From a virus (taxonomy: Duplodnaviria > Caudoviricetes), in the IMG/VR virus record IMGVR_UViG_2895427314_000003, positions 24,745 to 88,744 of that record: DNA of 64,000 bases. One strand, written 5' to 3'. The notes below the pieces were generated by a model. That model did no database searches, was not told the DNA's origin, and saw only the letters and a list, made by a program, of their open reading frames with translations. A program made the translations under genes and the position numbers. Shown here in pieces: positions 23,557 through 63,139 of this stretch (position 1 is its first letter; every line of letters begins with the position of its first letter).

Positions 23557-23904
23557 CTACCTGTGCTTCAGCCTGGTGAGCTTCAGGTCCTCACCCTCAC
23601 CTGCTGCGAGCACCACCACGTACGGCGTGGCATCCACGCCACCACCGACGAACACACCGCGGAACGTACGGCCGGCATCCATGTCCCTCGCCACCCGTGA
23701 TGCTGCGCCCTTGGCCAGGTAGCCGATCGACACAGGGATCTCACCCTGGCTCGGCACCACAGCCAACACCCGCACCGCGTCCGAGTCGTAAGGATTGTCC
23801 GGCTCACGCACCAGCTCGACCTCAGAGCCTGCCTTCACATACCTCGCGAGATCGCCCTGGTACTTCGCTCCACGCAACTTCACTGCGGAGTACTCGACAT
23901 GCAT
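23557..23904 (-). CDS. Stand-alone HIRAN domain protein
   Basis: V.L.G.KY...VELVREPDNPYDSDAVRV...IGYL.K..A..VA..MD. Confidence 0.85.
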   Translation of the reverse strand: MHVEYSAVKLRGAKYQGDLARYVKAGSEVELVREPDNPYDSDAVRVLAVVPSQGEIPVSIGYLAKGAASRVARDMDAGRTFRGVFVGGGVDATPYVVVLAAGEGEDLKLTRLKHR

Positions 23905-46117: not shown

Positions 46118-46515
46118 CCGAGTGGCTGACACCGGCGGTCATCACCCTGCTGGCCGGAGGACTGATGTCAGCCCTCGGAGTCCTCGTCAAAGCCCGCATC
46201 GACCTGCGGAAAGCCAAACTCGACGAGGAACGCCAGCCGGTAGAGCTGGAGAACGTGTTCATCGGCGGCGCCGAGAAAGCGGTGGCCGCTTTGCAGGTGG
46301 CGCTGGACCGCGCCGAATCCACGATCAACCGGCTCGAGCAGGCGCTGACGGAACGCGACCAGAAGCTGCAGGAGCGGGATCAGCGGATCGCCGAACTTGA
46401 GCTTGAGGTGACCAGGACGCTCGCCAGGCTGGCCAGGCTGCAGGAGCAGTGCGAAAAGCTCCAGACCCGCCTCGCCGACCTGAGAGTTGACCCGCGTGAG
46501 GGGGAGACCTTCTGA
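46114..46515 (+). CDS. Single-TM coiled-coil protein of lysis module
   Basis: GGGAGG RBS, TTG start, N-terminal TM then long heptad repeat. Confidence 0.75.
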   Translation: MTEWLTPAVITLLAGGLMSALGVLVKARIDLRKAKLDEERQPVELENVFIGGAEKAVAALQVALDRAESTINRLEQALTERDQKLQERDQRIAELELEVTRTLARLARLQEQCEKLQTRLADLRVDPREGETF

Positions 46516-47315
46516 TGCCGTACCTGACGCAACTCGCCAAGGTGGCCCGACGCACGGGCTGCCCGGTGACGGAGGTGAGCGGTTGGAAGACGCGCGGCCA
46601 CGGCCCGTTGACCGAGGTCGATGGGGTGGTTTGTCACCACACTGCGGGCTGGAACGACATGCACGTGGTCCGGGACGGGCGGCCCGGTCTGGACGGCCCT
46701 CTGTCGCAGATCTGGTTGAGGCGTGACGGGCGGATCTTCATCGTGGCTGCGGGCCGGTGCTGGCACAACGCGCCGAGCCTGTCGCTCGGCCACACCAACA
46801 GCCGGTCGATCGGCATCGAGGCCGAGAACGACGGCAAGGCGCCGTGGCCAGCGGTGCAGCTCGACGCCTACAAGCGGCTGTGTGCCGAACTGTGCCGCGA
46901 GTTCGGGCTGCCGGTGTCCACGGTGAAGGGCCACAAGGAGGTCAACGCCTCCAAGCCCGACCCCCACAGCATCAACATGAACGCCTTCCGGAAGGACGTG
47001 GCCGCCCTGCTGAAGGGCGAACCCGCGGCGCCGGCCGACACCTCATGGACGGAGACCCTGGTGAAGGACCTGCCCCTGCTCCGGCCCGGAGACGACAACT
47101 ACGACGTCAAGACGGCACGGCACCTGCTGCGCTCCCGCGGCTACCTGCCCGAGACCGTGTACGCCGGCGCGGGGCTGGAGTCCTGGCTGGACCGCACCAG
47201 GTACGACGACGAGTTCGCCGGCCTCATCAAGGGGTTTCAGAAGCTGAAGAAGCTGGACGCAGACTCGCTGATCGGCCCCCAGACGTGGGCGGCGCTGGTG
47301 CGAGTCGCCTCGTGA
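46515..47315 (+). CDS. Endolysin: N-acetylmuramoyl-L-alanine amidase (Amidase_2) with peptidoglycan-binding domain
   Basis: VVCHHTAG, CWH, SIGIEAEN, GHKE..KPDP, L.PGD...VK..FQK...L.AD..IGP.TWAAL. Confidence 0.92.
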   Translation: MPYLTQLAKVARRTGCPVTEVSGWKTRGHGPLTEVDGVVCHHTAGWNDMHVVRDGRPGLDGPLSQIWLRRDGRIFIVAAGRCWHNAPSLSLGHTNSRSIGIEAENDGKAPWPAVQLDAYKRLCAELCREFGLPVSTVKGHKEVNASKPDPHSINMNAFRKDVAALLKGEPAAPADTSWTETLVKDLPLLRPGDDNYDVKTARHLLRSRGYLPETVYAGAGLESWLDRTRYDDEFAGLIKGFQKLKKLDADSLIGPQTWAALVRVAS

Positions 47316-47537: not shown

Positions 47538-48080
47538 ATGCGTCTCAACAAGAGCGCGCTTCTGTTCGCTGCCGTCGTCGCCGCTGCTGGCCTCGCGGGC
47601 AGCCCGGCCTCGGCCTCCAGTTCCGCCCTCGATCTGCCTGTGGGCGCGCTGACGATCGTCGAGGTCGGCACCGACGCGATGGGCAGCGACACCTTCGCGA
47701 ACCGGAACCGCGAGTTCGTCACCTTCAAGGTCACGGGCGGCGGCCCGGTGGACATCGATGGCCTGGTGGTTCAGGACAACTGGTCGAAGAACAACGGCAG
47801 CCCGCACACCTGCAACAAGTACGTGATCACCGGCCTGCCGGGTCAGGGCTCCGCCGCCTTGCTCGCCGCGGGCGAGACCGTGACCGTCTACAACGGCTCC
47901 CGGTGGGGCGGCAACTACAAGGACGGCTCCGCGTACCGGCTGTACGCCAAGAGCGACGTGGACTGTGGCGCCTCCGGCCACTTCCTGAACAACGACGCCG
48001 ACTCTGTCTGGCTGACCTCCGGCGCCACGCAGGTGGCCAGCAAGAGCTGGGACTGGAACGGCGGATACACCGTCAACTAG
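47538..48080 (+). CDS. Secreted lamin-tail-domain-like protein
   Basis: Signal peptide ending ASA; N.EFV.F......VDI.G..V.D...L.AGETVTVY.G...LY...LNND.D.V.L. Confidence 0.7.
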   Translation: MRLNKSALLFAAVVAAAGLAGSPASASSSALDLPVGALTIVEVGTDAMGSDTFANRNREFVTFKVTGGGPVDIDGLVVQDNWSKNNGSPHTCNKYVITGLPGQGSAALLAAGETVTVYNGSRWGGNYKDGSAYRLYAKSDVDCGASGHFLNNDADSVWLTSGATQVASKSWDWNGGYTVN

Positions 48081-48089
48081 GAGGTCGTC

Positions 48090-48443
48090 ATGCAGTTCAA
48101 GCTGTTCGGCCGCGACCCTGCGGCCATCCTGTACGGCCTTCAGTCGCTGCTCGCGGTGCTGGTCGCGTTCGGGACGCTGACCGGTGACGCCGCCGACTAC
48201 ACGATGGTGGTGGCGAACGGTGTGATGGCGCTGATCGTGGCGCTCACCACCCGCCCGGTCGTCGTCGCCGCCATCACTGGTGCCGCGCAGACGATCCTGA
48301 CCGGGATCGTCGCGTTCGGGCTGCCCGGCCTCACCTTCACCACGGAGCAGCAGGGCGTCATCGTCGCCGCCCTGTCTGCGGTGCTGGGCCTGATGCTGAG
48401 GCAGAACCAGGAGCCGAAGGAGACGGCGGTCACCAGCGCCTGA
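48090..48443 (+). CDS. Holin
   Basis: MQFKLFGRDPA.. start typical of actinophage holins; multiple TMs. Confidence 0.8.
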   Translation: MQFKLFGRDPAAILYGLQSLLAVLVAFGTLTGDAADYTMVVANGVMALIVALTTRPVVVAAITGAAQTILTGIVAFGLPGLTFTTEQQGVIVAALSAVLGLMLRQNQEPKETAVTSA

Positions 48444-48991: not shown

Positions 48992-49063
48992 GAGGGCCGG
49001 GTCATCCTTCGGGATGGCCCGGCCCCTCCTCCTCGTCGAGGAGGACGTTAGGAGGATGGCGAG

Positions 49064-49267
49064 ATGGAGCACCAGCCACCCACTGTCGTCAGATGGCATG
49101 ACGGGCGCGACGTGTACGTCTACCCGGACGGGGTTCGCCTGTACGTTGATGAGGTCCAGGCGATGCTGGCCGGCGCGGAGGAGCGGCGCATGCAGCAGCT
49201 CACGGTGGACGACCTCGACGAGGTGAGAGCAAAGATCGAGGAACTTCGAGCAGCACGGGAGGCGTAG
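49064..49267 (+). CDS. Small hypothetical protein
   Basis: AGGAGG upstream; coding-like composition. Confidence 0.7.
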   Translation: MEHQPPTVVRWHDGRDVYVYPDGVRLYVDEVQAMLAGAEERRMQQLTVDDLDEVRAKIEELRAAREA

Positions 49268-49416
49268 TGGCGAGAACCGCTCTGGACTTCTACGAAGACG
49301 AAGACCCGAACGAACTGCTGGCCATCTTCGACGCCAGAGAGAACGGCGTCACCACCTGCCCGACGTCGGCGCTGCCGCACATGCTGCTGTCTCCTACGGC
49401 TACCGAAACAAGCTGA
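49267..49416 (+). CDS. Small acidic protein (49 aa, MARTALDFYEDEDPNELLAIF...)
   Basis: TAGTG 1-nt overlap with previous gene. Confidence 0.55.
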   Translation: MARTALDFYEDEDPNELLAIFDARENGVTTCPTSALPHMLLSPTATETS

Positions 49417-49471
49417 TCACACGTATCGTCAACCTCAGGCCGGTCCCCTCGGGACGCCGCTGCCTGGGCTT

Positions 49472-49509
49472 AGAGGCCCTCGCTCTCCTCCGGGAGGGCG
49501 AGGGCCTCT
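49472..49509. terminator. Bidirectional intrinsic terminator
   Basis: 17-bp stem agaggccctcgctctcc/ggagggcgagggcctct between convergent genes. Confidence 0.75.
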
Positions 49510-49524
49510 TCGGATTGTCGGCCC

Positions 49525-50121
49525 CTACTCGGACTCCGCCACGAGTCGCTTGAATTCGGCCCAGAATTCCGGGCTGCTGTTCGCCTGCAGGCTTCGTAGC
49601 GCTGATGATGCGTTGTCGAGGCGGACAGGGATGCGGCGCCGACGGAAGCCGGCCGCGACAGCAGCCGCGTGGATCGACTTCTCGCCGCGCTGTACGGCTT
49701 CAAACTCTTCTGGCGCCTCTGCTGCCAAACGGGCTGCCGTGTATTCGGTGGACTCTCCCTGGATGGAAAACCCATTAGATTCTAATGGGTTTTCTGCATC
49801 AGCTCTGGGTCGGCCTGGCGTGCCCGCCTTGGCCTCGCGCAGGAGGATCAGGAGATCGGGATCGTCCGTGCCAACGATGCGATCGATTAGCTCGATGGAC
49901 GCGCCCAACCCTTCAGTGGCCGGCGTCGTGACGAACTCCATGAAGCTCTTGAACATCACCACGGTCCTGGATTTGACGTCGTACCGCTCCCGCCATGCTT
50001 CCGTCTCCAGCAAGCGCTTCAGGAGCCGCGGCACGTACGCCAGGCCTGATTCACCGTTATGAACGGCGCCACGAAGGTCCGTTACGAGGTGGTCGTGTTC
50101 CACCCGCGGATCGACCGTCAT
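49525..50121 (-). CDS. Putative DNA-binding protein coupled to the HNH-helicase
   Basis: ATGA overlap; FMEFVTTP..EGLG, PGRPR AT-hook-like, RL....PE.F..V.RGE.SIHAAA..AG helical motif. Confidence 0.8.
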   Translation of the reverse strand: MTVDPRVEHDHLVTDLRGAVHNGESGLAYVPRLLKRLLETEAWRERYDVKSRTVVMFKSFMEFVTTPATEGLGASIELIDRIVGTDDPDLLILLREAKAGTPGRPRADAENPLESNGFSIQGESTEYTAARLAAEAPEEFEAVQRGEKSIHAAAVAAGFRRRRIPVRLDNASSALRSLQANSSPEFWAEFKRLVAESE

Positions 50122-52010
50122 TCGCCCTCCCGTGCGCCGGGAGCTACGCCGGTGGCCAGCCACTGCTTCGCGAACTGCAGACGCCTCTCAAGCTGTTCCT
50201 CGCTGCACTGACGGACTCCCCGTGACACGGGCACGCCAACGAGCTGGTTGAGGCGCCCGTTCACGGTGCCGTAAGGGATGCCGTAGGCACGCGCGACCCG
50301 CTGCGCGGCGGTGTTGTTCTGCTTCTTCAGCTTCTCCTTACGCTCGAACGGCGCGTCGGCGGCCTCCGAGGGGGGAACGGGCTGGGCCGTTGTGAAGGTG
50401 GCGCCTGCGTTGCGCAGGAGCTTGGCCACCAACGCGGTCGGCATGGCGGTGGTTGTCGGGTCCATCCGCTTGACCTGCTCGGCGTTAGCCAGCTCGGCCG
50501 GCGTGATGGTGTCGGAGTCGACGATGACGCCCTCGTCCGTTGGCGTCGCCGAGATGGGGGAAAACAGCGAGAAGAGCGGCTGCTCGCCCGACGGCCCAGA
50601 GCTTTCCCCGCCCGAGTCTCCGAGCAGTTCGGCGTCCTGCTGGTCGAGGATGTGGTCACGCTGTTGCTTGATCTGTGCGGCCATGGCCCGCAGCCTTGAG
50701 TCGTCGGGGATGTAGAGGTAGGCGGTCGGGTCGTCCTCGCCGGGGCGGATTCGTACGAGCCTGCCGACGACCTGGCGGAAGAACAACTCGGTGATCCACG
50801 GTGTGGCGTAGACGCCGACCCGGAGTCGGGGGATGTCCACGCCTTCGCTGACCTTGCGTATCGTGACGATCCACGGAGCGGTCGACGACTTGAAGGTCTT
50901 GATCCGGCCGTCCGCCTCCGGCTCATCGGAGATCGCGAGAACGGGCGTCTGGCCTAGCGCGGTGAGCAGCTTGACCACTTCGCGGGCGGTGTAGGAGTCC
51001 TCGCAGAAGACGATGCCGCCGGCTTCGGGGTCGCTGGTGCGCACTTCGGCGAGCTGCGTGTTGGCCTCTTTGAGGACGGATGGCAGCCATTCGCCGGTGG
51101 GCGAGAGCGCGGTGCGCAGCCGGTGGGCGGCGTCGCGGTCATTGAGTTCATCCTCGAAGGTGGCGCTGCGGTTGGCGCCATTGGGAGCGGTCCACTCCAT
51201 GAGTCCGCCGCGGCGGGGGAAGAAGACGGCACGGACGACGCCGTCGGCCAGAGCCCGGTCGTAGCCGTAGCGGAAGTCCGGCGCGCCAACCCCGTCGACG
51301 TAGTTGACGAACGGGATCTCGTCGTTGTCGGACCGGAAGGGTGTGCCGGACAGCAGGAGCTTGGCCACGGCTGGCTCGAAGGCGGTTCGTGCTCCAGCGC
51401 CCCAGGCGCGCTCTTCTCCGCCGCAGTGGTGGATCTCGTCGAGGATGACCAGCGTCGGCTTCTCGGAGACGAGCTTGCGGTAGATCTGCGGCTGCTTGGC
51501 GATCTCGGCGTAGGTTGCGGCGCACCCTTGCTCGTCAGTGGCGAGGCGGCCATCGGCGGCGTGCCAGCCGGGGTTGATGCTGATGCCCTGTCTGCTGAAC
51601 TCTTCGGCCCATTGGCTTTCGAGGCGTGCGGTCGGTACGGCGGCCACGATGCGTTGGACGCGCCCCGAGGCGAGCGCTCGGCGGGCGATTTCGATCGCCA
51701 GCCTGGTCTTGCCTGCGCCCGGGGTGGCTTCGACCAGAAAGCCGTTGCCTTCGCGCGGAATCCACAGGGTGTACTCCCTGAGGGCGTCCTCCTGCCAGGC
51801 CCGGAGCTGACTCATGCGATCCCCCTTCTGGAGATTGCATTCGGGACACAACGCTTCCCCGTTGCTCACGTCCGTTGCCCCTCCGTGGGAGTAGGGCATG
51901 ACGTGATCTCCGTGCCAGCCCGGCTGGAGATCGACTCCGCAGCGACTGCAGCGTCCATCGTTGGCCAGGAAGAGAGCGGCCCGTTGGGATTGGTTGAAAC
52001 GGCGGCTCAT
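50118..52010 (-). CDS. HNH nuclease fused to superfamily-2 (DExH) helicase
   Basis: CSRC..HGDH..P...GG.T...N...LC..CN..K then ATPGAGKT, LDEIHH, LSGTP, SEGVDIP, QVVGR. Confidence 0.9.
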   Translation of the reverse strand: MSRRFNQSQRAALFLANDGRCSRCGVDLQPGWHGDHVMPYSHGGATDVSNGEALCPECNLQKGDRMSQLRAWQEDALREYTLWIPREGNGFLVEATPGAGKTRLAIEIARRALASGRVQRIVAAVPTARLESQWAEEFSRQGISINPGWHAADGRLATDEQGCAATYAEIAKQPQIYRKLVSEKPTLVILDEIHHCGGEERAWGAGARTAFEPAVAKLLLSGTPFRSDNDEIPFVNYVDGVGAPDFRYGYDRALADGVVRAVFFPRRGGLMEWTAPNGANRSATFEDELNDRDAAHRLRTALSPTGEWLPSVLKEANTQLAEVRTSDPEAGGIVFCEDSYTAREVVKLLTALGQTPVLAISDEPEADGRIKTFKSSTAPWIVTIRKVSEGVDIPRLRVGVYATPWITELFFRQVVGRLVRIRPGEDDPTAYLYIPDDSRLRAMAAQIKQQRDHILDQQDAELLGDSGGESSGPSGEQPLFSLFSPISATPTDEGVIVDSDTITPAELANAEQVKRMDPTTTAMPTALVAKLLRNAGATFTTAQPVPPSEAADAPFERKEKLKKQNNTAAQRVARAYGIPYGTVNGRLNQLVGVPVSRGVRQCSEEQLERRLQFAKQWLATGVAPGAREGE

Positions 52011-52318
52011 CCGCACGCCTCCCCCGAAGCATGGCGCGGCGGCGTCCCCATTAACGCACAGTGAACCGCGCGGATCCGTGAGCAGAAGCGTGCCCTATTC
52101 GAATCCGCTGCGTAGTGATTCAGCGCCTATTGCGAAGAGTTCTCGCATCAATACGGACAGCGATTACAGCACCGTGAAAGCGCCATCCAAAGATCATTGT
52201 TATGAAGATGATGGCAGAGTGTGATGCGGATCACTTGAATGCGCGATGGATTCATTAGATGATGCCCGCTTTCACTCGTTTGCCCTCATGTGATGGAATT
52301 CTCCACAGTCGGTTGACA

Positions 52319-52471
52319 TCACCCAACGGGATGCTCTCGAAACAAGTCCCGCACGGCCTGGCTCGCCTCGGGCGGCACCTCCTCCGTGGCGAGGATGTGC
52401 TCCTCCATCTCCCTGCGTAGCCGTACTTCCGCCAAGCGCTGCTCAACCTCTTCCGGGTCCATGGCCGACAT
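52319..52471 (-). CDS. Small acidic protein (about 50 aa, MSAMDPEEVEQRLAE...)
   Basis: Translated by hand; GGTGAGG RBS. Confidence 0.5.
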   Translation of the reverse strand: MSAMDPEEVEQRLAEVRLRREMEEHILATEEVPPEASQAVRDLFREHPVG

Positions 52472-52542
52472 CCTCACCCCGGTACGTGATCACCCGCAGC
52501 GATGTCCGTATCATCCCCTCGAACCACTATCGGGGGAGCGTC

Positions 52543-52860
52543 ATGGCGGATCGTGAAGTACCGAGTGACCTGCTGGAACTCAAGAAGGAGTTCCTCAAGG
52601 CCGAGGCGGAATGCGAGAGGATCAGCAGGGCGCTGCCATCCAGCGTCGACGTCGTAGCGCTCGAAGCAGAACGAGACACCGAACTGGAGCAGCAGCTCAA
52701 CGAGGCGCGGGCGTGGAGGCTGAAACTGGTGGACGCCATCTACCGGCGCCCGGCCATGGCGAAAGGCGCGGAGGACCGGCTCAGGACCAGCCTGGGACTG
52801 ACACAGGCCGCCAAGGACGCCCTCGCCGCGGAGGCTGGCGACGGGTCCCCGCCCCCATGA
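52543..52860 (+). CDS. Helical hypothetical protein
   Basis: GGGGAG RBS before ATG 52543. Confidence 0.7.
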   Translation: MADREVPSDLLELKKEFLKAEAECERISRALPSSVDVVALEAERDTELEQQLNEARAWRLKLVDAIYRRPAMAKGAEDRLRTSLGLTQAAKDALAAEAGDGSPPP

Positions 52861-52985
52861 CAACGCCCCGGCTGTGGGGAAGCAGCCGGGGCGTTCCCAC
52901 ATACCCCCCACGGCGCGGCGGTCCGCCGAGAAAAGCAGGGAACCTCGCGACACCAGTGCGACACAGCGGTGCTCCACTGACCGGC

Positions 52986-53183
52986 ATGACGAACACCTAC
53001 GAGATGCCAGACGGCGGCATCGAACGCGTCGGCGGCCACCCCGTCCTGCACGACGAAGCGGAAATCGACACCGCGTTCGCCGTCCGCTCCCTGCTGGAGT
53101 CGCAGTCCAGCGCGGAGGCGCGGCACCGTGTTCTCGCGTGGGTGGCCGCGAGCACTCTGGATGAAGACTCCACCCCAGTCTGA
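52986..53183 (+). CDS. Small hypothetical protein
   Basis: ORF between two related hairpins. Confidence 0.55.
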   Translation: MTNTYEMPDGGIERVGGHPVLHDEAEIDTAFAVRSLLESQSSAEARHRVLAWVAASTLDEDSTPV

Positions 53184-54329: not shown

Positions 54330-56654
54330 TCACGGCGCTTTCTGCGTCGCGCGGAGATTGCCGAGGAGGTCGGGCAGGTCGTCGGGCTTGACGAGCACCT
54401 CGCGTGCTTTAGAGCCCTCGCTTGGACCGACCGCGTTCCGGCTCTCCAGCAGGTCCATCAGCCGCCCCGCCTTGGCGAACCCGACCCGCAGCTTGCGCTG
54501 CAGCATCGAGGTCGAGCCGAACTGCGTGGTCACGATCAGCTCGGCCGCCTGGATCAGCAGGTCGAGGTCGTCGCCGATGTCGAGCGCCTGCTTGGGGGCG
54601 GGCGCGGCCGGTTCGAGGTCTCGGTAGGCGGCGGCGCCCTGCTTCTTGCAGTGGGCGACGATCTGCTGCACCTCTTGCTCGGTGACCATGGGGCTCTGCA
54701 ACCGGATGGGCTTGTTCTCGCCCGCGGGCAGATACAGGCCGTCGCCCTTGCCGATGAGGTTTTCTGCGCCCGGTTGGTCGAGGATGACCCGCGAGTCGGT
54801 GAGGCTGGAGACGGCGAAGGCGAGCCTGGACGGCACGTTCGCCTTGATCAGGCCGGTGACGACGTCCACCGACGGCCGCTGCGTGGCGATTACCAGGTGG
54901 ATGCCCGCCGCGCGGGCGAGCTGGGTGATGCGCACGATCGAGTCCTCGACGTCGCGCGGGGCCACCATCATCAGGTCGGCCAGCTCGTCCACGATCACCA
55001 GCAGGTACGGGTACGGCTGGTAGACCCGCTCGCTGCCCGGCGGCGGCTGCAGCTTGCCCGCCCGCACGGCCTTGTTGAACTCGTCCACGTGCCGGAACCC
55101 CGACGCCGCCAGGTCGTCGTAGCGCCGATCCATCTCGCCCACGACCCATTCGAGGGCCTCGGCGGCCTTCTTCGGGTTGGTGATGACCGGGGTGATGAGG
55201 TGCGGGATGCCGTTGTAGACGGCGAGTTCGACCCGCTTGGGGTCGATGAGCACCATGCGGACTTCCTCCGGGGTGGCGCGGAGCAGGACGCTGGCGATCA
55301 GGTCGTGGACGCAGATGGATTTGCCGGCGCCGGTGGCGCCAGCGATGAGCAGGTGCGGTGTTCCGGCCAGGTTGGCGACGATCGGCTTGTTCTCGATGTC
55401 GGCGCCGAGCGCGACCGTCAGCGGGTGCTTGCGGGCCTTCGCCTCCGCCGAGTTGAGGATGTCGCCCAGCCGGATCAGGTCTCGCTCGGCGTTGGGGACG
55501 TCGATGCCGACCGCGTCGCGGCCGGGCGCGGGAGCGTGGATCTGTACCTGGTCGCATTTCGTGGCCACGCGGAAGTTCTTCAACAGGCCGGTGATCTTCT
55601 CGACTTTGACGCCGGGGCCGAGCGTCACGAAGTAGCGGGTGACTTGCGGGCCGCGAACGAAGTCGTCCACGGCGGCATCGATGTCGAACTCGGCCAGTAC
55701 CCGGGAGAGCGCTTCGACGACGGCATCGGTTGCCCTGGTGCGCGGCCGGGCGGTGCTGCCCTGCTTGAGCATGCGCGGGTCGGCGGGCACGTACGAGGCG
55801 GGCGTGCGCGTGTTCCCTGGGGCTGCGAACTCTTGCGGTGGCCCGTCATCGGCGGAGGCCGGCTCAGGTTCGCCGGCGGCTTCGTCGGACGTCTCGTCGG
55901 TGCGGTCCGGCTCCGTCTCTGGTGGTTCCTGGTCGCCTTCGGGCGGGCTCTCTTGCGCGCCGACTGCGACCGGTGCGGCGAACCGGCTGCGGACGGCGGC
56001 GGCCCGCTCGGGGATGTCGCGCGGATGGACGCCGCCCGCGATGAACAGCGCCAGGAGTCCTGCCGCGGCAAGGATCGGCACGTCCGCGTCCGGGATGTGG
56101 GAGGTCAGCCAGGCTGCCGCCGCGTATCCGGCCAGGCCGCCCGTCTCTGGGGACGCGACACCGCCGCCGTGGACGGCGTGCGCGATGCCCGCCCAGGCGG
56201 CCAGCGCGACCGCCCAGCCCGACAGCAGGCGGGTCATGGGCCGGTCCGGGTGGCGGAAGCGCCGCCACGCCGCCACCATCACGGCAGGCGGGACGGCGAC
56301 CGCCGCAGACCCGACCAGGGCGCGCGTCAGCGTCGCAGCCGCGGCAGCGAACATGTTGTCCCACAGGTTCCACACGCCGGCCGCGAGCAGCAGCCCGGCA
56401 GCGAGAACGGCCAGGGCGGCGTTGTCGTGGTGAGCGGTGGCGGCGTCTGCGGGTTCGCGGCGGATGCTTCGGCCCACCCGGTGGGCGCTTCTGGTCCACG
56501 CCGCGGACAGCAGCCGCTTGGTCTTGCGGGCGATCCACGCGGCCGGGTCCTTGCTCGCGGTCCGTGCCTTGCGGGCAGGGAGCGCCGTACGGGCTGGTTT
56601 CGCGGGAGCGCGCCGGGCGGCTGGCCGGCGTGTCCTTCTGGTGGCGGCCATCAC
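54330..56654 (-). CDS. ftsK: DNA translocase FtsK/SpoIIIE, chromosome-type (N-terminal TMs, linker, motor, gamma domain)
   Basis: [49 protein letters not shown], gamma domain [25 protein letters not shown]. Confidence 0.92.
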
Positions 56655-56842
56655 CGTCTGCCGATCTCGCCGCGGCGGTTGCAGCGCGGGCACGCCCGGT
56701 ACCGGTTCGGCCAGAACCGCGCCGATAACTGGCCGCTGCCCTTGCAGCGGGGGCAGCGTGACAGCCGGTTGCGCTGGTAGTCGATGACCACCCAGGCGGT
56801 GAACGCGAGAGCGGCGAGAATCAGGAAGGCTTCCATGGTCAT
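56651..56842 (-). CDS. Small membrane protein with DnaJ-type zinc finger
   Basis: N-terminal [10 protein letters not shown]...CPRCNRRG. Confidence 0.75.
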
Positions 56843-57381
56843 GACCCCGCTTCGGTGAGCCATCGGCCGTTGACCGGCAGGACGTGGCCTTGGTTGACGA
56901 ACCGGTAGATGGCCTCATACCGCTCCCCCAACTCGGTGGGAATGGCTGAGAGGCGGCGGCGGGCGTAGCGGAGCCGGGCGAGGCCGCTCTGGACGATGGT
57001 TTCGGCGTTGAGGCAGTCGGCGAGCCAGGCGCGGGTGGCGTCGGACATACCGCCCGAGGCGTTCGCTTCGGCGTGGGCCTGCTCCTGTGCGTGCCGATAC
57101 GACGCGGCGATCTTGGACTGGAAGGTGGTCAGGCGGGCCGCCCGCCCGCGCAGTTCGTGTTCGAGGCCGACAACGGCAGAGACAAGATCACGGTCGGCTG
57201 GCCAGGGAACCGCCCAGGACGCGATCTCCTCATGTCCGAGGGTCAGCGCCACACCTGCCAGGCCGCTGTAGGAGACCGGGTCGAGACCGGCCGCACGGCA
57301 GCGAGCGTGCATGATCGCTGCCGTGGAGGCGGCGTCAGTGAAGTCGGTGTGCGCCGCGGCGGCACTCGTGTGCGTCATCAC
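56839..57381 (-). CDS. Hypothetical helical protein
   Basis: ATGA overlap; coding-like composition. Confidence 0.7.
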
Positions 57382-57522: not shown

Positions 57523-59676
57523 TCACACAGCGTTACCATTTGGGGTGTCCTCCTCGTCGGGCTCGGACGGCGCCAGCCGCCAGATCGAGCCGCGGCCCTT
57601 GCCCTCCCGCACCGCCACGCCTTCGGCGTGCAAGCGGGTCAGGCACTCGTGCACCTTCCACCGGCTCACCCCGAGGTCCTCCAGCGCCTCCGCCGCGGGC
57701 CGCACCGTCGTGCCGTCGGCGAGCAGGTCCAGCAGCCGCGCGCGGACCTGCTCGGACATGTCGACCTGTTCGGCCATCTGCCGGGAGCGTTCCTCCGCCG
57801 ACTGCGCCAGCGCCGCGGCCACCTCCGGGTCGGGTTCGGCCAGCGGCGACAACGAGGCGAGGTAGGTCCGGGTCTCGTCGATCTTCTCGGTGGCCTTGTC
57901 GAGCCCGTTGTCCTGCTGGCCGACCGGGCTCGTTTCCGGGCTCGCGTCCGGGGCCGTGTTGTTCGGCGTAGTCCCGGCCTGCTGCGCAGCAGGCCGGGAC
58001 TCCTTGAGATCGCGGGCATGCATCTCACCGGGGCCGGGCTCGGAGGCCAGCAGCCGCTCCAGCTTCACACCCAAGTGCGCGGTCAGGAGCGGCTCCAGCC
58101 GGGACGGGCGACGGCCCTCGGCCACCCGGTCGATGTCGACCAGCTCGCGCAGGTTGAACGTGCGGCCGATCTCGTAGTCGCCGCCCAACTGCGCGATGCA
58201 CGCCACACCCTTGTGGCCCTCGCCGTAGGTGGCCATGTCCGGCAGCGTCAACCCCAGGTCACCAGCCGCGTTGAACGCCTCGTTACCGGCGCCGAGCTGC
58301 AGGAACACGAAGTTGCGGATCTGGGTGCGGATGTCGGTCGACCCGATCCACTCCTGGGTGCCGCGCTGACCGGCCAGGATGAGCGCGAACCCCTCCGACG
58401 GGCCCTTGCTGGCGATGTCGACGACGCACTGCCGGATGGCGTGGCCGATGTTGTCGTTGTGGCCGAGCAGCGCGTCCATCTCGTCCACCTCGATCACCCA
58501 CAGGGGGCGGCCGGCGCGCGGTTCGAACACCGTCTCGTCGCCGTGGTTGGCGCCGCGCCACTCCATGCCGTCGCGGACCAGCTCGAGGATGCGCAGCGCA
58601 CGCACCCGCTCCTTGGGGCCGCACGCCGACAGGGCGAACGCCTTGCGCCACCGGTACATCTCGGGCGCCTTGATGCCGACGTTGATCCCGATGGGGAAGA
58701 CGTTGTCGGCGGCGGTGAGCCGCTCGTTGATGTTGCTGAGCAGCACGGTCTTGCCCGACCGGTTGATGGCGACGATCAGCGTGTGCAGGCCGCCGTCTTG
58801 GTTGCAGACCGTCAGCGTCAGCGGTCTGCCCGTCTCCGGATCGACCCCGACCGGCTGCGGCTTGCGGATGTCGGCCACCTCCGGCAGCACGATCTCCGGG
58901 TTGTCGTCCAGGACGGGGTGCGGAATCGGCTGCGCCCACGGGTCGGTGTACCGGATGGAGATCCACAGGCGTCCGGCGATGGAGTCAGGCCGGCACCTGA
59001 CCCGCTCCCGGGGCAGGCCGAGCTTCTCGGCGATCAGCTCTTCCTGGCTCGGGGTCGCGAACGCCGAAGCGCGCTGCCCGGTGCCCTGCGTGTCGATGAG
59101 GAACCGTTCACCCAGCCGGGTCGGCTCGTGATACAGCAGGTGAGAGCCGCGCATCCCGAACTTCGGGCCCAACTGGTGCCAGCCGGTCTTCTGCTCCCGC
59201 CACACGATCTTCTTCTGGACGGCGACATCGCCCCGGTACACCCAGTAGGCGACCCCGTAGGCGGCCATGTACAGCCACGTGAGCGCCCCGTACGGGCCCC
59301 ACGTCGGGCCGACGGCGGAACTGAGCGCCATCCACCCGCCGGCCCCGGCCACGCCGGCGGCGAGCCGGAACGCCCGGTCCTCACCGCCGATGTTGCGCAC
59401 CCCCACCAGGTAGGTGACCACAGCGGCGGCAACGCCGCCCGCGGCCAGCCACGGCGACGACCAGTCCAGCCCGTACCCGGCCCAACCGGCCCCGTACAGG
59501 CCGGCCCCGACGGGCAGCGGAATGCGCTCGGCGGGCTTCTGGCGGACCCACCGGACCAGGCCCAGGCCGCGCGGGCGCTTCACCGCCTCCTGCCCCTGCG
59601 GGGTCGTCTCGGCGCCGTCCTTCGGGCGGCGGCGGGAGAACGCCTCGCGGAGCGTCGGCTTGGGCTGCATGGTCAC
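57523..59676 (-). CDS. traB: TraB-like conjugative DNA translocase (TMs, FtsK-like ATPase, C-terminal winged helix)
   Basis: HTLIVAINRSGKT Walker A variant, VIEVDE Walker B, LAGQR, C-terminal GVSRWKVHECL..L..EG....GKGR...W. Confidence 0.7.
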   Translation of the reverse strand: MTMQPKPTLREAFSRRRPKDGAETTPQGQEAVKRPRGLGLVRWVRQKPAERIPLPVGAGLYGAGWAGYGLDWSSPWLAAGGVAAAVVTYLVGVRNIGGEDRAFRLAAGVAGAGGWMALSSAVGPTWGPYGALTWLYMAAYGVAYWVYRGDVAVQKKIVWREQKTGWHQLGPKFGMRGSHLLYHEPTRLGERFLIDTQGTGQRASAFATPSQEELIAEKLGLPRERVRCRPDSIAGRLWISIRYTDPWAQPIPHPVLDDNPEIVLPEVADIRKPQPVGVDPETGRPLTLTVCNQDGGLHTLIVAINRSGKTVLLSNINERLTAADNVFPIGINVGIKAPEMYRWRKAFALSACGPKERVRALRILELVRDGMEWRGANHGDETVFEPRAGRPLWVIEVDEMDALLGHNDNIGHAIRQCVVDIASKGPSEGFALILAGQRGTQEWIGSTDIRTQIRNFVFLQLGAGNEAFNAAGDLGLTLPDMATYGEGHKGVACIAQLGGDYEIGRTFNLRELVDIDRVAEGRRPSRLEPLLTAHLGVKLERLLASEPGPGEMHARDLKESRPAAQQAGTTPNNTAPDASPETSPVGQQDNGLDKATEKIDETRTYLASLSPLAEPDPEVAAALAQSAEERSRQMAEQVDMSEQVRARLLDLLADGTTVRPAAEALEDLGVSRWKVHECLTRLHAEGVAVREGKGRGSIWRLAPSEPDEEDTPNGNAV

Positions 59677-60985: not shown

Positions 60986-61144
60986 TTACGTGGGTGTTGA
61001 CTGCACCGCGCACGGCGGGTTGGCGACGGACTGGATGCACTCCTGGCAGCGAGGCGAGTAGCCGTCCCTACCGTGGACGGAACAGAAAGGCTTGGCCTCG
61101 TCCGGGTGGAAGCACTGGCAGAGCGGACACTGGTAGCGGCCCAT
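60986..61144 (-). CDS. Small Cys-rich zinc-finger protein
   Basis: CPLC..FH...FC..H...RCQEC; TGATG overlap. Confidence 0.65.
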   Translation of the reverse strand: MGRYQCPLCQCFHPDEAKPFCSVHGRDGYSPRCQECIQSVANPPCAVQSTPT

Positions 61145-62607
61145 CAGGCGCTCCTTTCGCGCCGCGTGGCGTTCAGCAGGCGGCGGCGTGTGCGGACGTC
61201 CAACTGGCCGAGCCATTCGTTGCGCTTGCGCCGGCCGTAGGAGTCGACACATCCGCCCTCTCTGGCCAGGTCGGCGCCGGTGGGCAAGTCGCCTCTGTCG
61301 ATGGCGTCCTGCCAGTAGCGCCACATCGCTTCGGTGGCGCTCGCGGTGGCGGTCACGGTGTCGTCGCCGTCGTCGTCGGGTTCCTCGCGGAGCTGCCGCA
61401 GCACCTCTTCCGCTTCGAGATCCGCCACCTCGTCCGCTACCTCGTCCGCCACTGGATGATCGGTAGCGGCACGAGTAGCGGTCCAAGTGTCGGTTGCGGT
61501 GTCGCCAGGCAGGGGCGGGACGGGCCGCAGCGCCACTCGACCCGCCACTAGATCCGCTACCGTCGGCGCCACCTCACCCGAGGTGGCGCTACCAGGTGGC
61601 GGGATGCGCCGGCCGACGAGCATGGAGGCGAGCATTTTGATCGTCGCGGCGGAGTCCGGGTCGCGTCCTTGGAGGACGGCCTCGGTCAGCTTCTGTATCT
61701 CGGCCGCGAGCCGGGCGGCTTCACTGAGCCGCTTCTGGCCGTTGACGGCCGGATGGTCGAGGTCCCGCCACGGCGCCAGCGCGGTGGACAGCACAACAGA
61801 TAGGTCCTCCCCGCCACCGAGCGTGCGCAGCACGGCCAGCAGCGTCTCTTGAGTACGCGGGTTGGTGGCCAGGTCGGTGTGGGCGACAGCGAGATCGAGC
61901 ATCCTGTCTCGCCTGCCGATCGCCGCAGCCACCTTCTTGGCTTTGGCGTTCGCCTCGCGCATCTGGTCCACGCGCTTGGCGGCCAGCGCCACCCTTTTGA
62001 GCCTGCGGTGCGTGTCCACCTCGGAGGCGGTACGGTCACGGGCTTCCGCCAGGCCAGCCCACACCAGGAGCCGTTCGGGTGTGAGCCGCCAGTTGATGCC
62101 GGCCTTGCCGCGCTGGCGCCGCCGCTCCAGCCGCATGCCGCGTTCCCACATCCACGCCGCCACCAGCGGGGCGGCAAGCCGGAAGACGACCTCAGCGGGC
62201 GCCTTGGCGTCCATGCTCGACAGGACAGCGGTCAGGCACGCCAGCGCCCACACAGCGATCCCATCGAGGCCGGCAGAGCCGTGCTCGCGCATGTTGCGGC
62301 GGGCCCGCACGGCCTCGGTCACCATGGACAGCTCGATGAACGCGAACAACGCGATCTGCAGCGGGCCGTCCAGCTTGAGCACGTCGCGGGTGAATCGCCA
62401 CATGCCTTCCGCGGACACGCCGGTCGCAATGGCGGCCACGCCGCGGGTCAGCCAGTCCTCGACCGGGCTGGAGGAGGAGGCATCCCTCCTACGGTTCTTG
62501 CGCGTCCCGTAGATCACGGCCAGGGGTACGCTGGCCGCAGCGATCGTGAGAAGCGCACCAACCGCCCACACCACTTCGGCGGGCGGCAGATACAGGTTCC
62601 AGTCCAT
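61144..62607 (-). CDS. DUF2637/SpdB-like multi-TM transfer protein with C-terminal helix-turn-helix
   Basis: Four TM segments, RLAAPLVAA..WE, C-terminal PTGADLAREGG...SYGRR. Confidence 0.7.
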   Translation of the reverse strand: MDWNLYLPPAEVVWAVGALLTIAAASVPLAVIYGTRKNRRRDASSSSPVEDWLTRGVAAIATGVSAEGMWRFTRDVLKLDGPLQIALFAFIELSMVTEAVRARRNMREHGSAGLDGIAVWALACLTAVLSSMDAKAPAEVVFRLAAPLVAAWMWERGMRLERRRQRGKAGINWRLTPERLLVWAGLAEARDRTASEVDTHRRLKRVALAAKRVDQMREANAKAKKVAAAIGRRDRMLDLAVAHTDLATNPRTQETLLAVLRTLGGGEDLSVVLSTALAPWRDLDHPAVNGQKRLSEAARLAAEIQKLTEAVLQGRDPDSAATIKMLASMLVGRRIPPPGSATSGEVAPTVADLVAGRVALRPVPPLPGDTATDTWTATRAATDHPVADEVADEVADLEAEEVLRQLREEPDDDGDDTVTATASATEAMWRYWQDAIDRGDLPTGADLAREGGCVDSYGRRKRNEWLGQLDVRTRRRLLNATRRERSA

Positions 62608-62975
62608 CAGGCGGCGACCTCCATCGGCACAAGCTGGGCAGTGGCGTCGAGGAAGGCCCGCAGCACGACGGCGTCGGCGTAGTAGCCGCGAGCCTGCTCG
62701 CCCATCGGGAGGGTGACGATGAGCCAGTCGGGCCGGGCGTGCGGCCCTACGGTGAACGTGCCGTCGCTGGCCGGGCGAACCAGTCCTGCGGCGAGCACCG
62801 CCCTGGCCACCAGGTAGCTGCTGCACGAGTCGCTGCCGTCGTGGCGGGTGAAGACGACCTCGACTGTGTTCGGGCAGTCCTTTCCGTAGGCGAGGAACGC
62901 GGCGTGCACCTCGATCTGGTCGCCGGTTCCCCACAGGGTGAAGGGCTGGTGGACGAAGTCCGTCGCGCTGGTCAT
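62607..62975 (-). CDS. SsgA-like (SALP family) protein
   Basis: LAYGKDCPNTVEVVF / VARAVLAAGLVRPASDGTFTVGP / VLRAFLDATAQLVP parallel the SsgA motifs L.Y...DP.AV...F / FARELL..G...P.G.GDV.VWP / V..FL.RT..LVP. Confidence 0.7.
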   Translation of the reverse strand: MTSATDFVHQPFTLWGTGDQIEVHAAFLAYGKDCPNTVEVVFTRHDGSDSCSSYLVARAVLAAGLVRPASDGTFTVGPHARPDWLIVTLPMGEQARGYYADAVVLRAFLDATAQLVPMEVAA

Positions 62976-63139
62976 CGCGTACTCCTGGTGGATCGGGTGG
63001 GAAGTTGTTGAGCCCCCGCCCGGGGCGAAGAGGGTTGGATTCCGTGCACGTTCGCAGGCGGGGGGAGTAAAGGGGCCCGTCCAGGATCCGGCGGCTGGGA
63101 TGATGTGGGGCCGCGGCCCCTGGACGGGAGATCATCGGG

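Follow-up and report, generated by a model that had tools for sequence, protein, structure and literature searches.

What is the role of a phage nuclease-helicase that is encoded together with a small partner protein, and of the palindrome that lies inside the partner's gene? The question arises from two minus-strand genes in a 64,000-base stretch of DNA (the window), which comprises bases 24745-88744 of the 88,744-base IMG/VR provirus record IMGVR_UViG_2895427314_000003 (CheckV completeness 90). One gene encodes an HNH nuclease domain fused to a superfamily 2 (SF2) helicase, and the other, immediately downstream, encodes a protein of 198 residues, referred to here as the partner. The pair is a real, conserved and undescribed two-gene module, and the partner gene carries a palindrome that is a candidate cis-acting DNA site. 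For the function of the pair, an origin-like role is put forward tentatively and weighed against roles in defence, recombination and mobility. In the portions of the literature covered by our searches, no published account of the nuclease-helicase/partner pair or of its palindrome was found.

The HNH-SF2 helicase and its partner

The two genes, the parts of the encoded proteins and the palindrome are arranged in the window as follows.

50118-52016, minus strand: HNH-SF2 helicase gene (open reading frame, ORF, with Pfam HNH and ResIII matches; G+C content at third codon positions, GC3, 0.84)
51816-51950, minus strand: HNH nuclease domain, residues 23-67 (beta-beta-alpha-Me type with a CxxC...CxxC zinc finger; PF01844, 1e-11)
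51813-51815, minus strand: internal ATG (Met68) with AAGGGGG at 51821-51827, read from the sequence
50685-51809, minus strand: SF2 DExH motor with two RecA-like lobes, residues ~70-444 (PF04851, phrog_16, PDB profile and Foldseek)
50151-50351, minus strand: C-terminal three-helix tail, residues ~556-622 (model helices 556-578, 582-592 and 606-622)
49525-50121, minus strand: partner gene, 198 residues (ORF; ATGA overlap with the helicase gene)
49766-49794, unstranded: perfect 14+1+14 palindrome GAAAACCCATTAGAATCTAATGGGTTTTC in linker-coding DNA (partner residues 110-119)

The helicase ORF comprises 632 residues when read from GTG 52016 and 630 residues from ATG 52010, which is the likelier start and has a GGAGG sequence 7 nucleotides (nt) before it. 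Both proteins were searched against the Pfam, PHROG, NCBIfam and PADLOC (2023 library) family libraries. The HNH domain matches phrog_2118 (HNH, 4.7e-13) and phrog_1035 (endonuclease VII, 1e-9), and its region matches the Pfam Endonuclease_7 model at 0.049. The motor matches ResIII (PF04851; 1.5e-14, residues 70-228) and phrog_16 (DNA helicase, 4.6e-32), with a weak Helicase_C match of 19.7 bits that falls under the 23.5 cutoff of that model. The nearest entry in a PDB sequence-profile search is XPBII (9.8e-20), with RadD (2.3e-11) and an HsdR fragment (2e-10) behind it. The predicted model, with a mean predicted local distance difference test score (pLDDT) of 79.6, is matched best in Foldseek by RadD (E-value of 2.6e-14 and template modelling score of 0.40-0.47), the type ISP enzyme LlaBIII, XPB-Bax1 and HsdR. 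By profile and fold, the closest solved motors are thus those of XPB-Bax1, RadD and the type I/type ISP enzymes. XPB also works with a nuclease, whereas here the HNH nuclease is fused in cis, and the enzyme differs from these motors in having its own C-terminal tail, the helices of which are modelled at a pLDDT of ~87-94.

Among 31 aligned homologues, the HNH residues C23, C26, D37, H38, N52, C57, C60 and N61 are invariant, as are the Walker A residues G102, K103 and T104, the DEIHH residues D193, E194, H196 and H197, the SGTP motif (223-226) and the motif VI residues Q415, G418, R419 and R422. With no variation in the HNH/zinc-finger residues or in helicase motifs I, II, III and VI, the nuclease and helicase activities are probably both intact. 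No full-length characterised family, of defence or other function, is matched by the helicase in the four libraries: the NCBIfam restriction, RadD and Dnd models all score far under their cutoffs (RadD 35.5 versus 720 bits), and the type I R-subunit models reach 29-37 bits against cutoffs of 550-729.

The closest protein relatives come from Nonomuraea, at 87% and 82% identity, and full-length homologues of 620-630 residues carry the HNH domain. Public annotation often strips this domain from the helicase, in gene calls for this protein and its closest relatives that start at the internal methionine (P0003, 565 residues; P0005, 562 residues; P0006, 558 residues). Such starts, which concern 51813-52016 in the window, are an annotation error that hides the nuclease. 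An earlier note on this stretch, made from its letters, had raised the possibility of a helicase-only form beginning at the ATG at 51815; the codon and its AAGGGGG sequence are present, but Met68 is not conserved in the family, with methionine in few of the 31 aligned rows.

The helicase stop codon TGA (50120-50118) overlaps the partner start codon ATG (50121-50119) as ATGA. The AlphaFold model of the partner (pLDDT of 86.1, falling below 50 at residues 104-106 and 109-121) comprises an alpha/beta N-terminal domain with three helices and a beta-hairpin, a disordered linker composed of residues 104-121, and a helical C-terminal domain. The protein has zero matches in Pfam, PHROG, NCBIfam and PADLOC. 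Foldseek against the PDB gave a best E-value of 2.8, a wide VIA-align search gave a best Z-score of 4.6 with no row distinct, and a PDB sequence-profile search returned only annexin rows at chance level (E ≥ 0.17). The C-terminal motif may be like the ParB DNA-binding region. Relatives are numerous: there are 4980 representative clusters at E ≤ 0.001, 2337 at 1e-10 and 508 at 1e-30, and the nearest Atlas clusters are 61-90% viral. The nuclease-helicase/partner family is mainly phage-borne, and the partner family, large and mostly viral, is without a name, a Pfam model or a fold match.

A genome scan with the helicase, in which the best 80 of 591 confirmed loci were analysed, was combined with a partner profile run on 84 loci, including the record itself and phage PIS 136. 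In all seven of the 84 loci that encode an HNH-bearing helicase (the record itself, phage PIS 136, L005, L006, L007, L017 and L082), the partner lies directly downstream of it; five of the best 80 scan loci match from residues 3-5 of the helicase and hence carry the HNH domain. Among 54 IMG/VR loci encoding a partner relative, the HNH-helicase lies directly upstream on the same strand in at least 43, and in 3 more the helicase is cut by the contig end or another ORF was selected. An all-against-all clustering of 1288 called proteins gave a partner family with members in 44 loci and a helicase family with members in 42; apart from these two no family occurs in more than 5 of the compared loci. 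The pair is present in 3 Streptomyces plasmids, and the genomes that bear it are very different, with G+C contents (GC) from 0.39 to 0.71. Within the genus of G001, the genome holding the Nonomuraea locus L068, 12 of 110 genomes match the partner. These results bear out much of the earlier note: the intact HNH motif fused to a DExH helicase (Pfam matches and catalytic residues invariant in the 31 homologues), the ATGA overlap with the 198-residue gene (50121-50118), the conservation of the coupled pair (7/7 loci and at least 43/54 viral loci), and the absence of a characterised family, PADLOC included, for either protein. In five viral loci (L120, L121, L123, L134 and L135) the HNH lies in a separate frame or ORF that overlaps the helicase start, which may represent a split gene or a frameshift.

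Stand-alone host paralogues exist for both proteins. Helicase-only loci, which lack a full HNH domain, make up 75 of the best 80, with matches starting at residue 38 or later, mostly at 67-71. This family is common in Actinobacteria and shares 35-46% identity with the helicase from residue ~70 to ~620, the C-terminal tail included; tblastn matches extend to residues 619-622, in agreement with the likeness of the tail that the earlier note had pointed out, there to actinobacterial Rv2917-like helicases. None of the 75 helicase-only paralogues (L038, L043, L068 and ~72 further loci) has a partner within 10 kb, and in the three loci examined the neighbours are MFS, IclR and AlgH-like genes. The function of the helicase-only paralogue appears unstudied; one published source gives Rv2917, in a table, as an SF2 helicase. 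Conversely, Nonomuraea chromosomes encode nine solo partner paralogues that lack a helicase within 10 kb and are surrounded by ordinary genes of metabolism and regulation. Three of these solo paralogues (L161, L162 and L166, in G023, G099 and G097) share a neighbourhood with an ArsR-type regulator, a glyoxalase and an FAD monooxygenase, and a two-component system also lies near those in L161 and L162. This repeated setting points to a host family of DNA-binding proteins as a possible source of the phage partner.

An AT-rich palindrome within the partner gene

The palindrome in the linker-coding DNA is AT-rich within 67% GC DNA and occurs once in the window and once in the 88.7-kb record. For the comparison of 50 distinct partner genes, palindrome scoring was used rather than hairpin energies, since the greater folding stability of GC-rich stretches masks the AT-rich palindrome and makes an energy scan misleading: the most stable 40-nt hairpin fell in the linker for only 8 of the 50 genes. 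By palindrome score, the linker-coding stretch holds the best palindrome of the gene in 34 of 50, compared with a chance expectation of 14.5% by length (binomial p of 1.3e-17). Scores of at least 8 were reached by 25 of 50 linkers versus 20 of 1335 equal-size windows of the adjoining helicase genes. Perfect palindromes with arms of at least 10 number 11 in 37.7 kb of partner genes versus 34 in the remaining 829 kb of the loci, a density 7 times higher in the partner genes. The mean GC is 0.526 for the linker and 0.591 for the whole partner gene.

The arms vary among loci yet remain complementary. In a covariation set of 48 aligned palindrome sites with 14 pairs each, 79.4% of cells are paired, versus 49.9% in shuffled and 34-43% in slid controls, and cells altered on both sides number 203 versus 70, a level reached by 0 of 500 shuffles; the alignment register came from the palindrome search itself, and all of these numbers are therefore inflated. 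The register matches a conserved Asn codon, centred on its second base, in 25 of 32 cases. The palindrome of the window has the same DNA centre in a reading frame different from that of the other loci, which points to selection on the nucleic acid rather than on the linker peptide. A collinear prophage in G054, with a partner 77% identical to that of the window, has a wholly different perfect palindrome (12+1+12) at the same centre.

G-U pairs are rare in the arms, and mismatches, judged by eye, are not wobble; the palindrome is for this reason more likely to act as DNA than as RNA. A search of Rfam with 49300-52600 gave zero matches at E ≤ 1. The arms are single-copy in all 16 loci or records checked. 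The palindrome is missing from all nine helicase-less partner paralogues in Nonomuraea chromosomes and is thus tied to the helicase-coupled form of the partner. Conserved, single-copy and covarying, it suggests a cis-acting DNA site, and it provides a testable handle on the role of a common phage nuclease-helicase. A promoter-operator role was considered and is unlikely, since neither the window nor the record contains a further copy of the half-site.

The palindrome imposes a TTA leucine codon on the partner gene (49781-49783, minus strand). High-GC actinomycetes use TTA very rarely, and its reading in Streptomyces requires the bldA tRNA, so that this codon could place translation of the partner under developmental control. 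At L107 (7338-9926, plus strand), a gene for an 863-residue protein precedes a partner gene with a linker palindrome, and only the N-terminus of this protein matches the HNH end of the profile, weakly (E-value of 1.9e-4). Enzymes other than the HNH-helicase may be coupled to the partner, as at L107.

Possible roles of the pair

In viral contigs the pair is most often part of an early operon, with genes for DnaB, primase-helicases and recombinases as neighbours (Pfam assignments of 144 neighbour proteins from 18 viral loci). DnaB is directly upstream of the pair in L091 and L093, and AAA_25 or DUF5906 primase-helicase-like genes are directly downstream in L111, L125 and L134. ERF, YqaJ, RecT-like, PD-(D/E)XK, VRR-NUC, endonuclease VII and HTH_36 genes are found nearby, and many junctions between the pair and co-oriented neighbours overlap by 1-4 nt. 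In phage PIS 136 the pair is likewise placed among DNA-metabolism genes.

We tentatively propose, at somewhat less than an even chance, that the pair is a partner-guided nick-and-unwind module that acts on its own hairpin in an origin-like manner. The cassette joins an endonuclease-VII-like HNH to an XPB/RadD/type-I-like SF2 DNA motor. The single-copy AT-rich palindrome would extrude as a hairpin or cruciform, and the translationally coupled two-domain partner would bind or mark it and recruit the enzyme; the HNH domain would then nick or cut the extruded hairpin, the motor would open the DNA outward from the nicked hairpin, and replication, or recombination-dependent replication, would enter at the opened DNA. 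Binding, cleavage, unwinding and origin activity of the cassette are what we infer. In a more specific form, which is slightly less probable, the pair would be a new kind of phage origin or initiator, with the HNH-SF2 enzyme guided by the partner to a fast-evolving cruciform encoded in the partner's linker; enzyme, partner and cruciform would make up a portable site that specifies itself as the start of replication or recombination and is traded among phages, plasmids and prophages. Most replication origins of actinophages are unmapped, and the pair, if origin-like, would supply a new type of initiator in these phages and, for the genetics of actinomycetes, a portable replicon part.

Origins inside initiator genes have precedents in lambda, with its origin in gene O, and in P2, with its origin in gene A. 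As in the lambda O-type origins, the AT-rich candidate cis element here lies in the linker-coding DNA of a gene for a putative DNA-binding protein; iterons are present there, whereas here there is one palindrome. In the lambda O-type arrangement, and in the Streptomyces linear-plasmid replicon of rep1 (iteron) and rep2 (helicase), as described in a preprint, the gene with the cis element is coupled to a helicase gene, as here. The helicase of the present pair differs from those of origin-in-initiator modules in being an SF2 enzyme with an HNH nuclease, and none of the best 40 of 70 helicase-matching plasmid records has a replication name.

Several observations weigh against an origin-like role. 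Our confidence is limited in particular because iterons are absent, with one palindrome in each of the 16 loci or records checked, unlike lambda-type origins, and because the cassette in this prophage sits outside the early region, antisense and solitary like lysogen-expressed accessory genes. A clear linker palindrome is lacking in 16 of the 50 partner genes. The partner family is absent from three whole phage records with a homologous lysis cassette (0/3; G114, G115 and G116), of which G116 says little on the need for the pair, since it shares little with this phage beyond the tail and lysis modules; in general the relatives without the pair are too mosaic to tell whether it is dispensable. 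DNA binding by the partner is something we infer, because its fold gave no match. Finally, defence effectors commonly combine a nuclease and an SF2 motor in one protein, the best PADLOC match of the helicase is the helicase part of PbeA, and in Kitasatospora (L007) a variant of the pair lies between an Mrr nuclease plus a complete Septu system (PtuA 3.6e-183, PtuB 1e-80) and a pPIWI-RE system (PprPIWI 6.5e-98, PprDinG 6e-180).

The last of these points raise the alternative of anti-phage defence or superinfection exclusion expressed from the lysogen, in which the partner would sense or specify foreign DNA, the motor would translocate and the HNH domain would cut, with the intragenic palindrome as a regulatory or self-marking site. 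This alternative is a live rival, which we hold to be somewhat less likely than the origin-like role. It draws on the nuclease-motor design, on nearest structures that include type ISP and type I motors, on the setting of the L007 variant between Septu and pPIWI-RE, on the solitary antisense position after the lysis cassette, where L158 has other cargo, and on the patchy spread of the partner (12 of 110 genomes of the genus). The match with PbeA (7.7e-20) aligns residues 63-428 with profile positions 245-622 of 672. PbeA, of the CxC ABC-ATPase/DndE-centred system PbeABCD, likewise has a nuclease N-terminal to a related SF2 helicase; according to its published account, that nuclease is of the HKD type, whereas here it is an HNH and only the helicase part of PbeA aligns. 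PbeB, PbeC (CxC ABC ATPase) and PbeD (DndE) are linked to PbeA, whereas PADLOC gave no match for the 10 small ORFs that flank the pair here, and the 198-residue partner is unrelated to the components of that system. Type I and type ISP enzymes need methyltransferase and target-recognition parts; the pair has no specificity subunit, and no gene for a methyltransferase lies next to it in the window. Hachiman, Nhi and Hna resemble the pair in their general principle, a nuclease acting together with a helicase, but no HamA/HamB or Nhi model is found among 25 of the 26 PADLOC matches of the helicase, and the adjacent HamA (DUF1837) of Hachiman has no counterpart in the partner, which is without a PADLOC match.

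Against defence stands further that neither protein matches a defence family as a whole, and that the usual viral context is an early replication or recombination operon with overlapping junctions. Among 137 neighbour proteins searched with PADLOC at a threshold of 1e-5, of which 69 came from 18 viral loci, 19 gave matches, 6 of them in L007; the viral loci contributed 5 of 69. The L007/L006 variant may not represent the phage form, because its partner, a fusion of 466-495 residues, keeps only the N-terminal domain and lacks both the C-terminal domain and the AT-rich linker palindrome. A conserved single-copy hairpin in its own gene is moreover unexpected for a restriction-like nuclease. The earlier note had proposed an undescribed defence system: one variant in a defence island speaks for this, whereas the early-operon context, the few PADLOC matches and a palindrome that defence does not predict speak against it. 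If the pair were a defence system, it would be a new one with an unusual self-encoded DNA element. In the variant itself (L007:11884-13284, plus strand, and L006), the N-terminal domain of the partner is fused to an unrelated part of ~350 residues without a Pfam match, which in the atlas lies near DUF6192 clusters (0.96), a lead only.

An accessory role in recombination or repair, with a branch-migration motor and a junction-cutting HNH as in T4 UvsW plus endonuclease VII or RuvAB-RuvC, would make the partner a DNA-binding cofactor and the palindrome a hairpin in mRNA or DNA that tunes partner expression. The endonuclease VII matches of the HNH domain (phrog_1035 and Pfam Endonuclease_7), UvsW and RecG among the weak PDB profile matches, the ERF, YqaJ, RecT-like, VRR-NUC and PD-(D/E)XK neighbours, and the stand-alone host paralogues are all compatible with it. 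We nevertheless regard it as improbable, given that the palindrome is found only with the helicase-coupled form (0/9 solo paralogues), that its arms are fully changed between close relatives yet complementary, beyond what expression tuning needs, that rare G-U pairs disfavour an RNA-only role, and that no Rfam family matches. Lower still we place a selfish mobile cassette, homing- or Helitron-like, with the nuclease-helicase as mobility enzyme and the hairpin as its cis signal. The two genes are the only ones common to very different genomes; they occur in early operons, close to integrases (L104 and L136), on plasmids, and near transposase or TnpB genes (L007, L093, L155 and L156), and 5 viral loci have the HNH in a frame of its own. 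However, neither conserved ends nor target duplications came to light, L158 differs by replacement of a block rather than by a clean insertion, and the hairpin is internal rather than at an element end. HNH homing endonucleases are free-standing or borne by an intron or intein in a conserved gene, whereas here the HNH is fused to a helicase, the flanks are variable and the pair is not inserted in a conserved host gene. The proposal of a nick-and-unwind module on its own hairpin remains the reading that we prefer.

Position of the pair in the prophage

The features that flank the pair in the window are given below.

46515-47315, plus strand: amidase, late gene
48090-48443, plus strand: holin, late gene
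49472-49509, unstranded: 17-nt inverted repeat with a 4-nt loop, 94% complementary, 15 nt after the partner stop
52017-52520, minus strand: AT-richer upstream region with a 52-residue ORF (52319-52477, minus strand), kept with the pair in the G054 prophage

The record starts with a tyrosine integrase truncated by the record end and a helix-turn-helix repressor on the minus strand; early genes after the repressor comprise YqaJ, RecT, an HNH gene, methyltransferases and a 904-residue SNF2-like protein. The late genes of the window (small and large terminase, portal, capsid, tail tube, tape measure, amidase and holin) are on the plus strand, and the pair is antisense to them, as the earlier note had stated. 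Its AT-richer upstream region is also evident, with a GC of 0.627 at 52001-53000, and of 0.633 at 49001-50000, versus 0.67-0.68 nearby. In blastn, the collinear G054 prophage is homologous over 49476-52517 at 77.7% identity. A consensus scan upstream of the pair found no sigma-70-like promoter. The 17-nt inverted repeat separates the pair from the late genes that run towards it. The earlier note had called it a bidirectional terminator; it is terminator-like, but has no T-run and is not listed in a scan for terminators with T-runs.

The place after the lysis genes proved variable in this phage lineage, another point that the earlier note had anticipated: L157 has the pair there and L158-L160 do not, nor does the partner family occur anywhere else in their records. 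In L158 a 6-kb block is replaced relative to the window, and the place of the pair holds a STIV_B116/Csx16-like gene (L158:12493-13029, minus strand; Pfam 4.5e-24, PADLOC Csx16 2e-19), of the family of viral ring nucleases that counter type III CRISPR. Equipped with an upstream region of its own and a terminator-like hairpin, the pair forms an accessory insert here, in the variable arm that follows the lysis genes.

On the right of the pair, too, the DNA is accessory, since relatives carry FtsK/DUF2637 genes there and one of the large proteins encoded in it is found in only 7 of the genomes of the genus. An FtsK-like gene of 862 residues (54330-56918, minus strand; FtsK_SpoIIIE 5.8e-67, alpha and gamma domains, weak 4TM) was considered as host DNA; this was rejected, as weaker FtsK/SpoIIIE-like genes with DUF2637 lie at the equivalent place in relatives (L159:17355-19748 and L160:16988-19039). 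The arrangement suggests a conjugative-element-like module joined to the prophage right of the pair. Two large proteins without a Pfam match follow, of 717 residues (57523-59676, minus strand) and 663 residues (61144-63135, minus strand). Of 110 genomes of the genus, 7 encode the former, and at least two of these have a full-length relative of the latter beside it; the middle 250 residues of the 663-residue protein are ~60% identical to a protein of ~413 residues present in all 110 genomes. The right end of the prophage was not located, and no tRNA is present. Elsewhere in the window, a HIRAN-domain protein (5.7e-13) is encoded at 23557-23904 on the minus strand, just before the small terminase and opposite to it, and a lamin-tail-domain protein at 47538-48080 on the plus strand, between the amidase and the holin.

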